Below are positions 329-20,545 of a stretch of DNA of 21,182 bases, piece by piece; position 1 is the stretch's first letter; every line of letters starts with the position of its first letter. The position numbers and the translations under genes are program-made. The notes under the pieces are model-generated. The model was not told the origin of the DNA, ran no database searches, and was given only the letters and a program-made list of their open reading frames with translations. The stretch is from a virus. The stretch is from UHGV virus genome UHGV-0103843; one strand, written 5' to 3'.

Positions 329-1207
329 TCAGTAGTTATGTACTGAAGGAGGTAATTCTTTATTCTTGAGTCTCATCCATGCGGAAAGATTCGTTGGTCC
401 ATCTGGCTCATTAATATCAACATCTCGTGTGTGGTTTATTAAAACGTCTCTCGCCATTCCGATAACATACGAGAATTCATGACCGTAGTCGTAGCATCTG
501 CCGGAATAGTTCGATTGAATTTGTTTTAATGCCGGATACAGTTCGCGGAATAATGCCTGTGAGCGGTTGGCATAATCCCATAACCATACAAGGCTGTTTT
601 CTTCTTTTGCAGAAAGCTCGTTGGTTTTCTTCTCTTGTTTGCCGATGAACTCACCTTCAAGCACTACCCTGTGGATGTACTCTACGGCCAGCGGGATTTG
701 TTCAATTGAAAGTTCATCAATGCTGTCAATACCAAAACGCTGATGAACCATATTGTATGCATCGTCATAGCGAAGTCCTTTCTTTCCTACCAGCATGTTT
801 ACTGCATCGCGTAGCGGCGTTCTTTCCTCAACAGTGGTTTTCTTGCCTTTCACATACTCGCCATGTTTGCGAATTGAAGGTAGAACTTCTGCTGTTACCC
901 ACTTGCGGAATTTGTGCGGGACCGAACCTTTATTGACAGCATCGCGGCAGCGCAGAACCAATGTATACATACCTGATTCGCTAACAATGCTTAGATTCTG
1001 CTCACCACCAAGGGTGTAACTTAAAGTTACTCCCTTTTCATCGTCATCAAGTGCAGTAAGCGCCTTGCGTGAGTTAGTCAGGGTTAAAGCATCACAAACA
1101 TCTTTTGCTACAAACCACGGCTCACCGCATTTGTTGATGACGCGGATTTCACTGTCGCCGAATTTGAAGATGGTGAAATCGTTTTGTGCCTTTGCTATAC
1201 TTTTCAT
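329..1207 (-). CDS. ant: Antirepressor Ant
   Basis: Translation from the internal Met [43 protein letters not shown]... matches P22 Ant as remembered. Start moved from the track start (1273) to the ATG at 1207, which has an AGGAAA ribosome-binding site. Position downstream of arc as in immI. Confidence 0.85.
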
Positions 1208-1275
1208 GTCAATATTTCCTAATCCGATTTGTTGATACCGAAGCCCTGACTGTTCCCGCAGTTGGGGCTTCAACT
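1208..1275 (+). ncRNA. sar: Candidate sar-like antisense RNA covering the ant ribosome-binding site and the arc-ant spacer
   Basis: Plus-strand extended -10 TGCTATACT at 1193-1201 inside the 5' end of ant, pointing opposite to ant. The 68-nt arc-ant spacer contains an inverted repeat GAAGCCC...GGGCTTC (about 1241-1272). P22 is known to make a 68-69 nt sar RNA from this position. Ends are not mapped. Confidence 0.4.
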
Positions 1276-1437
1276 TTACGCGCCAATGCGCCCTTCCTTC
1301 TTAAAGCTTTCCATTACTCTCTGATAAATCTCAGAGTTAACAGACCGACCATTCTCTTCCGCCACCTTGCGTACCAAATCCAATACTTCTTTAGGCCACC
1401 GCAAATTGAACTGCGGCATCTTGCTCATTCCTTTCAT
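1276..1437 (-). CDS. arc: Arc repressor (ribbon-helix-helix)
   Basis: 53-aa product [53 protein letters not shown], essentially the P22 Arc sequence. The track ORF extends upstream across the operator; the real start is the ATG at 1437. Confidence 0.95.
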
Positions 1438-1453
1438 ATTCACCTCACAATAT

Positions 1454-1470
1454 AGGTCCACGGTGGACCT
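1454..1470. promoter_or_regulatory. Mnt operator
   Basis: Perfect 17-bp palindrome AGGTCCACGGTGGACCT, the known P22 Mnt operator sequence, placed at the Pant transcription start. Confidence 0.85.
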
Positions 1471-1476
1471 ATTGAG

Positions 1477-1505
1477 AATATAGTAGAGTGCTTCTATCAT
1501 GTCAA
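1477..1505 (-). promoter_or_regulatory. Pant promoter for arc-ant (overlaps the divergent Pmnt)
   Basis: Minus strand has -35 TTGACA (1505-1500), a 17-bp spacer, and -10 TATATT (1482-1477). On the plus strand a divergent TTGAGA-17-TATCAT fits Pmnt upstream of mnt. Confidence 0.7.
1480..1500. promoter_or_regulatory. Arc operator
   Basis: Minus strand reads ATGATAGAAGCACTCTACTAT, the 21-bp P22 Arc operator, lying between the -35 and -10 of Pant. Confidence 0.85.
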
Positions 1506-8021: not shown

Positions 8022-9439
8022 TACTCAATCCTTATCTGGCAACCAGACAGGGTGACAGGTGACTTAGTGATAACGCGCAATTTGAAGCCGACATTTTTCC
8101 TGATGCGCCCGACACGCTTCCACAAAACGCGTTTGTCGTAAACGAACGGTTCATTCTGCTCAATCATCTGCTCACGCCCATAATTTATGCCGTCAGTGGT
8201 TGCAGAGAGGAACAGGCGGTCGGCGTACTGAGCTACGCCAGTGGATGATTCCACCTCCAGATCGAAGCATCTGGCGTTATCCGCTTTGAACAGTGGAGTA
8301 AACAGCAGGTGTTCCTGTTGAAGCCCATACTGACTGCTGATATCGAACTGCAATTTCCCGGTCACCGATTCCAGCTTATCGCCGCACGTTATCTGATTTC
8401 CTTCGTAAATGAAGTCGATAGCGCGGTACACATCGTCATACAGACCTGTTTTCAGCACACACCATTGCGGACCATTGGCACTTGAAGATGCGTCGTATAC
8501 CAGGACATGGCGCGGAAGGTGGATAATCAGCAACTCATGCGCATCAAATCGCAGAGACTCCATCACGCCATCAGCCAGTTCATCAGCAGTGTAGGAGCGG
8601 AGGATTTTCTCAATGCTCGCGCTGGCGATTGGTGAAACCTGACCGGATCCGATGATGTATACAGACGGAGCACCTGTTGCCGGATTGCTGATGAACGCAT
8701 ACGAATCAGCAAACGGCGTTTTGCAGTAAGTCCCGGCAATGCCTTTTTGCACCATCAGCGATGGCTGTGCGACATACAAAGCGGCACCAACGGTGGTTGC
8801 CCCAGTCAGGGAGAAATATTCAATCGTCGATGAACCAAAACAGACGATGAAATCTCGCCATGTGCCGATACCTATGATGCCGTCCGGCTGAGATTCTGCG
8901 CGATATTGAGCACTGTAACGGTCAGGGTGCGATTCGTCTTCAAGGTCAGTGATAAACCATGAATCAGTACCGTCTTTTGACCACGCATAACGCCCACGTA
9001 AGCGCGTAATGTCGCGGACTGAGCCTAACTCATACTGCGTGAATCCGCTGTCTGTAGGCCAGTTTGAGACGGTTTTAACCGTGCCATCATAGCGATACTC
9101 GACCAGTTGACCATTAACGCCTACCGCCTGTGATGTCCGACCATGCGCCATTGATACGCGACCACTTCCGGCAACATCACCGACTTCGCTTTCGCCTTTG
9201 TAGAGCTTGCCGCCACACACACGATAGACAGCATTCTGCGCCATGTTGTACTCGACGCCGCGAGATACACCATTCACATCAGAACGTTTGGCAATGCCCG
9301 GGAATGAGCGAAGATATCCCGATGAATTCAACACCTCCTTGGGCGTAGCTAAAAGATTGACTGGAAGTTGGTCTATATAATCAGCATTAACCGCACTTTT
9401 CCCTAATCCCTTCATTAGTGGTAGTTGTTGTATTGCCAT
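8021..9439 (-). CDS. 10: Tail hub / head-completion protein gp10 homolog, with a replaced 5' segment
   Basis: From codon 32 onward the product ([18 protein letters not shown]...CQIRIE) is close to P22 gp10. The first 31 codons [31 protein letters not shown] are a divergent, AT-rich copy that overlaps the 3' end of the HNH gene. Start set at the ATG at 9439; the track start at 9448 is a TTG. Confidence 0.85.
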
Positions 9440-10019
9440 TGGAATCAACCTTTATATGAACCCAGTTAGCATCACGCTTTAGCCTACTTGCCCAGGTCTT
9501 AGATATCCCGTACTTAGCCGCAATTACTGACAAGCTTTCTTTTGATGACTTGATTGCAAGAACATCGTCATCACTCAACTTGTGTTTTGGGTGCTTGGTT
9601 CCGAAAAACTTGATTGGTTTCTTTAATCCTGTGGCGTATGCATGTTTGATGTTTTCGCTTTGAGTGCACCACTCAAGATTATTGACGTTATTATTGAGTG
9701 GATTGCCATCAATATGATTTACCTGAGGCTTGTTTTCAGGATTTGGCAGGAATGTAATTGCAACGATTCGATGGGCAAAAGTCCATTTTGCTCCGATATT
9801 ATAAAGCACCCTTCCCTGATTTATTTTAGGCTTTAACCAGCGCCCCTTTCTGAGTTGCGTGCTGCCATGCGCAGCCTTAACAACACGTGAGTGAGAATAC
9901 ACCCTGCCATCTTCTGTTACGGCATAAACACCTTCAAATCCAGGTATATCTTTAGCATTCTCAGAAAGCATATCTACTCCTTAAAGTTTCGATTTTTCAT
10001 GTACTTATTATATCAAAAT
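9347..10019 (-). mobile_element. Homing-endonuclease cassette: the HNH gene plus a recoded 31-codon 5' segment of gene 10
   Basis: Inferred insertion bounded by the end of homology of the displaced gene-10 fragment (about 10020) and codon 31 of the functional gene-10 copy (about 9347). Boundaries are approximate. Confidence 0.6.
9387..9971 (-). CDS. HNH homing endonuclease with an N-terminal NUMOD4-like motif and a C-terminal helix-turn-helix
   Basis: 194 aa with GFEGVYAVTEDGRVYS near the N-terminus, an HNH core HRIVAITFLPNPENKPQVNHIDGNPLNNNVNNLEWCTQSEN, and a C-terminal DNA-binding-like segment. Own AAGGAG ribosome-binding site. AT-rich island inserted inside gene 10. Confidence 0.85.
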   Translation of the reverse strand: MLSENAKDIPGFEGVYAVTEDGRVYSHSRVVKAAHGSTQLRKGRWLKPKINQGRVLYNIGAKWTFAHRIVAITFLPNPENKPQVNHIDGNPLNNNVNNLEWCTQSENIKHAYATGLKKPIKFFGTKHPKHKLSDDDVLAIKSSKESLSVIAAKYGISKTWASRLKRDANWVHIKVDSNGNTTTTTNEGIREKCG

Positions 10020-10112
10020 TGCCAGCATATTCACTGGCAGATAGTCGATATAGTCGGCGTTTCGAAAGTCTTTGCCGACACCTTTCATAAGCGGAAGTTG
10101 CTGAATCGGCAT
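10008..10112 (-). pseudogene. Displaced original 5' fragment of gene 10 (31 native codons, then ILI-stop)
   Basis: ATG overlaps the gp4 stop as TAATG, as expected for the native gene-10 start. Encodes [31 protein letters not shown], which matches the P22 gp10 N-terminus, then runs into a stop 3 codons into the inserted DNA. Confidence 0.8.
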
Positions 10113-17221: not shown

Positions 17222-17710
17222 TTATTTCCCTTCTGCTTGCTTCCCAGTGGTGAACGAATCAACGCTGCCGCCGGAATAGCAGTCAAGATCAATTGCGACT
17301 TGTACCGCTTCTCTCGCATTTTTGCCACAGTGCATGGCAGTGCGAGCAATCAGCCCACCACTACCAATGGCGTATGGTTCAACCTGTGGCGAAATACTCG
17401 CCCGCGTTTCGCCTTTCTCTTTTGAGATGATGTAAGCACGACCAGCACCGATGATAGCAAGCGCTGTGAAAGAGAATGTCGGGAGAAATTCTGATGCATA
17501 CGTCAGGTTGTTCTTAAGCAGTTCCTGCAATTCCATCTCCGCGCCGCAATCACCAGAACAACCTAATGCAACCACTTTACTGCCGCAAACCTCCCACCCA
17601 GATTCTGGCGGTGTGTAAATCTTTTGTTCTGTATACGAACACACAACATCACCAGATGTTGCCTGGGTGTCAGATGCCAGGGTCTTTCCATCCCATGCAA
17701 TAGTGGTCAT
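17222..17710 (-). CDS. HslV-like / proteasome beta-type Ntn-hydrolase peptidase (phage cargo)
   Basis: 162 aa beginning [21 protein letters not shown] (Thr exposed after Met removal), an internal Lys near position 30, and the motif [12 protein letters not shown]. Pattern resembles HslV as remembered. Stop lies 5 nt before the gene 3 start. Confidence 0.6.
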
Positions 17711-17711
17711 A

Positions 17712-17954
17712 TCATGCTCCGGTGGTGAACAGGTCTAACGCTTCCTTCGATTTACGCACCGCTTCGATAGTGCGGGTCGTGATATCTGAATTAGCGCCGC
17801 CTGACTGGAAGTGAATTTTAAATAGCTCAAGCTTCAGCTCGTCAGTGCCAATGAATTGAAATGCTTCCTCTGCGGCTGCGTTCTGGTTCATGACCAGTTT
17901 GTAAATCTCTAACTGGAATTTCTGTTCTTCAGTCATGGGAATAATCTCTGCCAT
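17712..17954 (-). CDS. Small hypothetical protein translationally coupled to the HslV-like gene
   Basis: 80 aa, GGAG ribosome-binding site. Its stop TGA is 1 nt from the ATG of the peptidase gene. Confidence 0.5.
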   Translation of the reverse strand: MAEIIPMTEEQKFQLEIYKLVMNQNAAAEEAFQFIGTDELKLELFKIHFQSGGANSDITTRTIEAVRKSKEALDLFTTGA

Positions 17955-18057
17955 TGTTGGCTCCGTTTATCCGTTAAAAGGGATATCAGTTAATTTATCC
18001 CGTGTAGGGTATAAGCCATTATCAAAGCCACTCTGTAGGGAATGGCTTTTGTAATAA

Positions 18058-18419
18058 CTACTGTTCGCTTAGCTTCTGCTTCAGCAAGTAACCTTCCAGC
18101 ATCCAGATTTTATTCACCGCATTTTCGCGGGCGATCTTACGCCCGATCTCCTGGTCAAAGTTCTCCGGGCTGGCGCACGCAGACTCGCCGGTTACGGTAA
18201 AGCCGTTCTCCAGCACAAGAACGCAGAAGGTCAGCAGTTCGAGTGATTGCGGGCCGGTTCAGGCTCTTCCTGCTTCAGCCACAACGGTGAGCTGCGATAT
18301 CCGTCCGCGCCGGTAAAGTAAAACTCGCCTGAGATAACAGCTTCAATGCGTTCCGGGGTAACACGCGCGGCCGTTTTGCCTTTCTCAACGATTTCTTTTT
18401 CGATTTGCTGTTCGTTCAT
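18058..18419 (-). pseudogene. Frameshifted hypothetical phage gene
   Basis: Reading frame opens at the ATG at 18419 (MNEQQIEKEIVEKGKTAARVTPERIEAVISGEFYFTGADG...) and hits a stop at 18231. A different frame continues with clean coding character (LLTFCVLVLENGFTVTGESACASPENFDQEIGRKIARENAVNKIWMLEGYLLKQKLSEQ) to a stop at 18058. Confidence 0.45.
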
Positions 18420-18701
18420 AATTATGACCCTGTGGAGTGGTTGCTTGATTAGGATGTCTTTCCATCAGTCCGCCACCACAAAGAATCTTTTTTGCCATAA
18501 GGCAGGAGGTTCATCTTTCAGTGGCTGCCAGTGTTATTTCCCCACTTACTGGCTTGGGTTGCTTCGTGGCACTGCCGTAACTGGTGGTGCACAGATTTAG
18601 TTAAATCTGTTCTCGCCTGAACTATCTTTTACATACCCGGATTGTGGGGTGTAAATCACGGTTTCATTATCAAGCCCACCCGTAGATGTGCTTTGGAATG
18701 G

Positions 18702-18902
18702 CTACTGGCGGTCATTATGCTCGTAACGAGATACCGTCTTCCCGTTCTGGTTCATCACGTAGGCGACCTCGCCAGGTTTCAGGAATACATTTTTGTCCAT
18801 TCCCGATACCGCGATGCTCTGCTGCCCCGGATTGAACCCTACACTCAACCCGCAATGAATCTCTTCACCGCCACCTGGCGACATTACTTTTACTGTTAAC
18901 AT
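18702..18902 (-). CDS. Small hypothetical protein
   Basis: 66 aa with a strong AGGAGAAG ribosome-binding site, just downstream of the post-Rz terminator. Confidence 0.5.
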   Translation of the reverse strand: MLTVKVMSPGGGEEIHCGLSVGFNPGQQSIAVSGMDKNVFLKPGEVAYVMNQNGKTVSRYEHNDRQ

Positions 18903-18973: not shown

Positions 18974-19447
18974 TCACTTAAGACACTGCTCTTTGATGTA
19001 GTCCTGCATGCCGCGAATCATTTTGTCAGCGGTTGCGATTCCGTCCCGGTGATCGAAATAATTCCGTCGAGCGTCTGGAGTAAGTTCGGGGGCTCCTGCA
19101 TCATCCACGCCGGTGGAGGAGGTGGCTTTTGGCACTCCAGGGCAGGTTGCGGCGATGCGCAGCCGTTTAGCGCCAGAATCGACATCACGACGCAAATCGT
19201 TAATGGTCTTTTTCGCATCGGACAATTCCTTCGTGTATTTGGCATCCAGTGCAGCGACATCACGCTGGCGGGTCTGCATGTCTTTAATGGTGGCGGTCGC
19301 CAGGAGGAGTTTCTCAGTGGCCTTATCGCGCTGGTCTCTGTAAGTGATGGCGTTGTCGCGGTAGTGGTTCACGAAGAAAGCCAGTGCGCCGATTAACGCC
19401 AGCACCAGCAACTGCAGCCAGTAACGCTTAACCAGTGCGCTAATCAT
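18974..19447 (-). CDS. 15: i-spanin Rz
   Basis: 157 aa with an N-terminal transmembrane helix ([15 protein letters not shown]) and a coiled-coil periplasmic domain. ATG overlaps the endolysin stop as ATGA. Contains an embedded Rz1 frame. Confidence 0.85.
19018..19218 (-). CDS. o-spanin Rz1 (lipoprotein embedded in the +1 frame of Rz)
   Basis: 66 aa from [20 protein letters not shown] (lipobox-like LNGC), followed by a Pro-rich segment [16 protein letters not shown] that resembles lambda Rz1. GAAGGAA ribosome-binding site. Confidence 0.75.
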
Positions 19448-20389: not shown

Positions 20390-20465
20390 TGGTGCCGGTT
20401 AACGGATTTGAACCGCTACCTATTCACTTACAAGGCGACCGCTCTACCATTGGAGCTAAACCAGC
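20390..20465 (-). tRNA. tRNA-Thr (anticodon UGU)-like, phage-encoded
   Basis: 76 nt folded by hand: 7-bp acceptor stem with one G-U pair, D-stem GCUC/GAGC with the GG loop, anticodon loop CUUGUAA (U33, UGU, A37), T-arm AGCGG-UUCAAAU-CCGUU, discriminator A and encoded CCA. The anticodon stem has one mismatch. Confidence 0.55.
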
Positions 20466-20470
20466 ATGTT

Positions 20471-20545
20471 TGGCGGGACAGCGTGGACTCGAACCACGAT
20501 AAGAAGGTTAACAGCCTTCCGTAATGACCTTTATACGACTGACCC
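20471..20545 (-). tRNA. tRNA-Asn (anticodon GUU)-like, phage-encoded, atypical D-arm
   Basis: 75 nt folded by hand: anticodon stem GAAGG/CCUUC, loop CUGUUAA, T-arm CGUGG-UUCGAGU-CCACG, discriminator G and CCA as in E. coli tRNA-Asn. Acceptor stem has one U-U mismatch and the D-stem is weak, so it may be degenerate. Confidence 0.5.

Follow-up and report, generated by a model that had tools for sequence, protein, structure and literature searches.

The question raised by positions 18058-18419 of the window (the whole stretch of 21,182 nucleotides analysed here) is whether a single phage gene has been broken at this point and, if so, whether the break belongs to the phage or to the assembly. An earlier note had described a gene apparently split by a frameshift, and had put this down to either a recent inactivating indel in a cargo gene or a sequencing or assembly error. 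The reading favoured here, with a probability of about 0.8, is that of an ordinary and very recent inactivating 1-nt deletion in a gene of the acb4 family.

The window covers the late region of a P22-like (Lederbergvirus-type) phage or prophage, is encoded on the minus strand, derives from a human gut metagenome and includes no host DNA. The gene order starts with a Q-like antiterminator, tRNA-Asn, tRNA-Thr, holin, lysozyme, Rz, a 66-aa ORF, the acb4 pseudogene and a DUF2560 gene; it continues with an HslV-like ORF, the small and large terminase, portal, scaffold, coat, gp4, HNH endonuclease, gp10, gp26 and gp14 genes, and then with the ejection proteins, a lipoprotein, an arc-like gene, sar RNA, ant and the tailspike N-terminus. 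The pseudogene thus falls in the accessory region that has the lysis genes on one side and the terminase genes on the other. Its upstream neighbour is the 66-aa protein (phrog_3909; 18702..18902, minus strand), which follows the Rz spanin gene (19447..18974), and its downstream neighbour is an intact DUF2560 protein, the homologue of Sf6 gene 67 (17712..17954, minus strand; PF10834, E 1e-43), in the same order as in Sf6.

Two reading frames and one missing base

The whole gene is an acb4-like frameshifted pseudogene of the Gp49/Sf6 gene 66 family (PF13876) that occupies 18058..18419 on the minus strand, as delimited by alignment with the copy in Escherichia coli Z142-1 and by end-to-end alignment with Sf6 gene 66 and mEpX1 gp63. 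In the ORF listing and the three-frame translation, the ATG at 18419 opens an ORF of 62 codons (18231..18419) that closes at a TGA stop at 18233-18231, and a second minus-strand frame, -1 relative to this ATG, is open from 18258 to a TAG at 18060-18058 and reads ...PQSLELLTFCVLVLENGFTVTGESACASPENFDQEIGRKIARENAVNKIWMLEGYLLKQKLSEQ. The N-terminal ORF comprises 56 authentic residues (M1-A56), six residues that are out of frame (RNHSNC) and the stop codon. The C-terminal part, at 18058..18252 on the same strand, supplies the codons for P57-Q120 and the TAG, and is defined by translation, by its PF13876 match, by alignment with 9e4w_A and by the structural model. Coding in two frames across 18230-18300, as the earlier note had proposed, is borne out: the deletion site falls inside this bracket, both frames are open, and the C-terminal frame alone matches Pfam PF13876, entitled 'Phage protein (N4 Gp49/phage Sf6 gene 66) family', with 107.5 bits against a cut-off of 27 (E 5e-31; profile 22-82 of 82). 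The note was also right that the N-terminal part runs from the ATG at 18419 and that the part ending at 18058 lacks a start of its own. This frame contains no ATG before M107, and its earliest possible start is a GTG at 18216, which opens the sole mechanical ORF in the frame (52 aa; 18058..18216, minus strand); a Shine-Dalgarno sequence was sought in the bases upstream of the GTG (ACCTTCTGCGTTCTT) and none was found.

The nature of the lesion was established by comparison with intact relatives. When positions 18040-18440 were compared by megablast with 5,426 complete E. coli genomes, the lone full-length match at ≥99% identity was an intact allele in E. coli Z142-1 (NZ_CP159700.1). Pairwise alignment revealed that all 401 window bases are identical in this strain, and that the one difference is a CCCC run in Z142-1 against CCC at 18251-18253 in the window, so that the lesion is a 1-nt deletion in a 4-nt homopolymer. 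The Z142-1 copy is annotated as an intact 'Gp49 family protein' (WP_354143018.1, 120 aa), and the intact protein, which reads ...YRSSPLWLKQEEPEPAPQSLELLTF..., shows the window's product to be genuine through A56. To the earlier note the tail of the N-terminal frame had looked like out-of-frame translation; this holds for RNHSNC, but not for YRSSPLWLKQEEPEPA, which is in frame and present in every intact homologue of the allele. Z142-1 carries the gene in a P22-like prophage, in which it is likewise followed by genes for DUF2560, the small and large terminase and portal. It differs from the window in that its own gene is intact (CCCC, 120 aa), in having a KilA-N protein and an 85-aa protein upstream in place of the window's 66-aa ORF, and in its flanks, which are mosaic at 94-98% identity. 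A search of complete E. coli genomes with the whole window recovered only mosaic relatives, covering at most 76% of it.

A DNA pattern across the site that accepted either three or four bases in the run matched 30 contigs (one GTDB representative genome, from Kluyvera, 19 from IMG/VR and 10 from metagenomes). The extra base was present in all 30, as a C or, in the two contigs with CCCT in place of CCCC, as a T; the run in the window (18251..18253) corresponds to GGG on the plus strand. Every complete copy matched by the pattern is an uninterrupted ORF of 120-121 aa, and the 3-base variant was not found in the IMG/VR, GTDB-representative and metagenome scans. Seven contigs from other samples encode a protein identical to the restored one, again in an uninterrupted ORF. 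Further afield, Sf6 gene 66 (126 aa) and mEpX1 gp63 (123 aa) are each one ORF and can be aligned with the window over their entire length; the main difference is a variable linker that immediately precedes the conserved LLTFCVLVL strand. At least 8,000 clusters were recovered in a protein search, of which the best 120 are all 106-174 aa long and all carry PF13876, and in a locus search with the family alignment the best 80 of 593 matches are all full length. The two parts are therefore not normally separate genes, since the homologues form one continuous gene of ~120-126 aa, and in the C-terminal frame conservation is not lacking but at its highest for the family. The locus has no uninterrupted reading frame and is a PF13876-family pseudogene, in which the 1-nt deletion leads to the stop at 18233-18231. 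Nor does it have the character of a phase-variable homopolymer locus, in that the tract is 4 nt long (3 nt here) and the window's allele is the lone length variant. Scans around the gene revealed no promoter-like site, no Rfam match near the gene and, among terminators, one weak hairpin on the opposite (plus) strand, which is no more than shuffled sequences give.

An Acb4-family protein and the consequence of the break

The protein restored by adding back the missing base is a member of the Acb4 family by both profile and fold. It matches phrog_322 (E 8e-59), and a sequence search of the PDB returned one match, 9E4W, 'anti-CBASS 4 (Acb4)' (E 0.0036; residues 64-105 against 39-80 of the chain). 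An AlphaFold2 model of the restored 120-aa protein, built from a 36-sequence alignment (mean pLDDT 82.4), contains helices at 3-12 and 22-28, a strand at 29-36, short helices at 37-48, a short helix at 58-61, strands at 63-70 and 75-81 and a long helix at 90-119. When this model was compared with the PDB using Foldseek, ranks 1-13 were all chains of 9E4W (probability 1.00; target-normalised TM 0.61-0.72) and the next match had an E of 0.19, leaving 9E4W as the only significant fold match. The model reproduces the Acb4 protomer fold of N-terminal helices, a three-stranded antiparallel sheet and C-terminal helices.

The founding anti-CBASS 4 sponge is Acb4 of the Bacillus phage SPO1, which belongs to PF13876; its tetramer acts as a sponge for 3'3'-cGAMP and related CBASS signals (Chang et al., bioRxiv 10.1101/2024.12.30.630793). 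Eight further Acb4 homologues were all found to bind 3'3'-cGAMP, and those from phages of Gram-negative hosts bind 3'3'-c-di-AMP as well; specificity is reported to vary among homologues. Sf6 gene 66 (Q716B1) appears in the Table S3 list of 1,331 Acb4 family members of the same study (bioRxiv 10.1101/2024.12.30.630793). The other name-giving member of PF13876, gp49 of phage N4 (N4 Acb4), binds c-di-AMP (111 nM) and triggers PanDA (bioRxiv 10.64898/2026.08.10.743972). By homology with SPO1 Acb4 and N4 gp49, the restored protein would be expected to form a homotetramer and to bind cyclic dinucleotides with nanomolar affinity, and the sponge activity of Acb4 in the P22-like clade is likewise putative. 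SPO1 Acb4 shares the Pfam family and is the best fold match, but it is only ~23% identical, is 96 aa long and lacks the N-terminal extension and the linker. In the HMMER alignment, three of the SPO1 ligand contacts are kept (F48, F62 and I66, as F74, F88 and I92) and five are not (E49, V56, Y57, N63 and T70, where the restored protein has T, C, A, D and I); K36 and K81 fall outside the aligned stretch. Because five contact residues are replaced, the ligand preference may differ from that of SPO1 Acb4. Sf6 gene 66, which gave PF13876 its name, has the same position as the window's gene, between the lysis genes and gene 67 (DUF2560), and its N- and C-terminal thirds are ~90% identical to the window in DNA; it is intact at 126 aa, and the variable linker that joins its N-terminal part to strand 2 is different and longer.

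In the model, the break at residue 57 falls between the strand at 29-36 and that at 63-70. The 62-aa product retains the N-terminal helices and strand 1 and is without strands 2-3 and the C-terminal helix; the C-terminal part holds every position aligned to the SPO1 ligand contacts from F48 on, and the window's copy is, unlike SPO1 Acb4, truncated before the ligand-contact residues. In SPO1 Acb4, strands 2-3 and the C-terminal helix form both oligomer interfaces and the ligand pocket (bioRxiv 10.1101/2024.12.30.630793). Since the break separates strand 1 from these elements, the sponge function is expected to be lost and the allele to be null.

The proposed account runs as follows. From the intact gene, by homology, a tetrameric sponge of ~120 aa would be made and would take up CBASS cyclic dinucleotides (3'3'-cGAMP, and c-di-AMP in homologues from Gram-negative phages), and sequestering these signals would block abortive-infection immunity. 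One C would then have been lost from the CCCC run, most likely by replication slippage, and translation from the normal ATG would yield 56 correct codons, a shift of frame, six wrong residues and a stop. The outcome would be a null allele of very recent origin, as is suggested, if the deletion is real, by the lack of any other change against intact alleles in 401 nt and by the single mismatch in 1,231 nt against the locus L040. The 'inactivating indel in a cargo gene' of the earlier note is accordingly retained as far as the indel is concerned, but the gene is not an anonymous cargo: it belongs to the Acb4 anti-CBASS sponge family.

Taken alone this is a minor observation, concerning a single damaged accessory gene in a single phage of one gut sample, and an ordinary frameshift pseudogene of a kind already known. 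It is of use for annotation, where the locus should be labelled as a frameshifted acb4 (anti-CBASS sponge) pseudogene and not as two hypothetical ORFs; by family, the 'Gp49 family' genes beside the terminase genes of P22-like prophages would be putative anti-defence genes. Annotation of the family is uneven in another respect, as the Gp49/Acb4 homologue of Escherichia phage Huey (PQ850609.1, 37814-38194) has been labelled 'anti-CRISPR protein' by an automated pipeline, at odds with the experimentally based Acb4 assignment; this is probably a mis-annotation.

Mutation, error or function

The two options offered by the earlier note, a recent inactivating indel or a sequencing or assembly error, proved to be the right ones to weigh. 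If the base count were an error, the phage would really carry CCCC and an intact gene, and a base would have been lost in the reads or the assembly. The exact 62-aa product has been called on six public contigs with the same neighbouring proteins: ERZ1744996 NODE_1104 (the window's own contig, identical over 389 nt around the gene), ERZ920157 ERR1018197...k127_50865, Logan ERR1018197_1147, ERZ28662119 YUJU15-1_SAMEA3541481 scaffold_871, ERZ19634338 k119_13048 and ERZ27260189 k119_73239. Two of these name the run ERR1018197 (human gut, PRJEB10878) and one names SAMEA3541481, from the same cohort; going by the names, all six probably come from one biological sample and the others are re-assemblies, and the agreement therefore speaks for reproducibility across assemblers, not for independent occurrence. 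An error would fit an allele that is private to contigs probably from one run, the modest coverage given in the contig names (cov 9.73, multi 9.0), a site within a homopolymer and flanking DNA that is otherwise identical to the intact allele over 401 nt and bears no sign of decay. That the variant was absent from the IMG/VR, GTDB-representative and metagenome scans and from the 5,426 complete E. coli genomes would likewise be expected of an error. On the other side, the six assemblies, in at least four naming styles (SPAdes-style NODE, MEGAHIT-style k127 and k119, a scaffold set and Logan), give the same base count, and the data appear to be short-read shotgun. In such data, indels in 4-nt runs are rare. 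In the sibling phage L036 (run ERR1018248, same study) the genes come in the same order and the acb4 gene is unbroken. Over 10.7 kb this phage shares 98.8% identity with the window, with a single net indel, at 18253; four further gaps cancel out as two pairs where the portal gene has diverged. Among the 206 homopolymers of ≥4 nt in the window, which include 19 of 6-7 nt, no other run disrupts a gene, and the lengths of all other genes agree with the sibling's. A general homopolymer error in the assembly is rejected on these grounds (no other net indel against L036, longer homopolymers unaffected, gene lengths matching). An error confined to this one site is unlikely, and the agreement among assemblies and the comparison with the sibling favour, with good confidence, a genuine recent deletion, whose presence in the reads is inferred from the assembled contigs.

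A further group of explanations would have the locus still function, through programmed recoding (a -1 ribosomal frameshift or transcriptional slippage) that yields the full-length protein, or as a two-piece gene whose products complement one another. The downstream frame does lie at -1, and many phage genes with programmed frameshifting shift in this direction, but the 25-nt overlap in which the frames could join (18258-18234, AACCGGCCCGCAATCACTCGAACTG) contains no slippery heptamer of the form X XXY YYZ, the run is only 3 nt long and the two-frame layout occurs in none of the homologues examined. Both programmed -1 frameshifting and transcriptional slippage are rejected for want of a slippery heptamer in the overlap and of a conserved layout. 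A two-piece gene meets the difficulty that the C-terminal frame offers no start bearing a ribosome-binding site, and that its GTG lies inside the strand at 63-70. Re-initiation at the GTG at 18216 to give a working C-terminal piece is unlikely for the same reasons, and the 52-aa product is in addition absent from a collection of 15 billion proteins; this ORF is probably not translated. As a whole, a functional locus of either type is barely credible.

The deletion might also be real and have been selected, which would refine the account of an inactivating deletion. Two 2026 preprints (one of them bioRxiv 10.64898/2026.08.10.743972) describe guard systems that are set off once their constitutive cyclic dinucleotide is taken up by a sponge. 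E. coli PanDA, which restricts Acb4-encoding phages, is triggered by N4 or Bas69 Acb4 expressed on its own, and most Bas69 escapers of PanDA carry acb4 mutations, chiefly premature stops (bioRxiv 10.64898/2026.08.10.743972); in the second 2026 preprint, SPO1 Acb4 was found to trigger E. coli Panoptoo. Loss of Acb4 could in the same way have allowed escape from guard systems (PanDA/Panoptoo or Panoptes-like), and the window's allele is the same kind of null mutation as those of the acb4 escapers. N4 and Bas69 are, in contrast, lytic Schitoviridae, and the Bas69 mutations are mostly SNP stops selected in the laboratory, whereas the window holds a natural 1-nt deletion in a temperate P22-like phage, without a known selective agent. 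Nothing in the window bears on selection: the metagenomic contig contains phage genes only, a single private frameshift is equally expected from neutral mutation, and all other relatives examined are intact. Selection of this kind is rather improbable, and the specific proposal that a temperate gut phage discarded its Acb4 sponge because its host carries a guard system of the PanDA, Panoptoo or Panoptes type is more doubtful still. Were it true, it would amount to counter-counter-defence selection in the wild and not in laboratory escapers; null alleles, if enriched in hosts with sponge-sensing guards, would be field evidence for an arms race, but nothing here points to such enrichment.

Related elements and neighbouring features

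The deletion apart, the closest group of Acb4 alleles (121 aa, beginning MTDMDIEKEI...) is found mostly on contigs and plasmids of ~100-110 kb from many Enterobacteriaceae (loci L004-L033, and E. coli plasmids such as NZ_CP025894.1), whose size suggests that they are phage-plasmids. The variable linker YRSSPLWLKQEEPEPAPQSLELL is common to these ~100-110 kb elements and P22-like phages, and this sharing suggests that the Acb4 linker may have been exchanged between them by recombination. The 90%-identity cluster that holds the protein also lists 'GrxA family glutaredoxin' members of 81-82 aa and unrelated sequence from contigs of ~105-110 kb; these would seem to reflect an artefact of clustering, or else genes called as fused or overlapping on the phage-plasmids.

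Elsewhere in the window, the 162-aa ORF at 17222-17710 (minus strand), directly upstream of the small terminase gene, resembles an HslV-family peptidase (phrog_1040, E 4e-38) and has no Pfam match; it is also present in the siblings L036 and L039, and other genes occupy its place in Z142-1 and Sf6. Between gp4 and gp10 there is a gene for a 194-aa HNH/NUMOD4 endonuclease (9971..9387, minus strand), just upstream of which a 34-aa ORF (10111..10007, minus strand) is a diverged duplicate of the gp10 N-terminus; the full gp10 follows. In L036, gp4 and gp10 are contiguous and a different HNH gene, of 181 aa, is found after gp10, and the segment at 9387-10111 has the look of an insertion by a homing endonuclease in which the target end was duplicated. 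The phage also carries two tRNA genes, tRNA-Asn(GTT) and tRNA-Thr(TGT), at 20390-20545 (minus strand), between the Q-like antiterminator and holin genes. At the other end of the window, a full-length match to the Rfam family of sar RNA (RF00262), the antisense RNA of P22 immI, was found at 1209-1275 on the plus strand (71.6 bits), between the ant-like gene (1273..329) and the arc-like gene (1500..1276).
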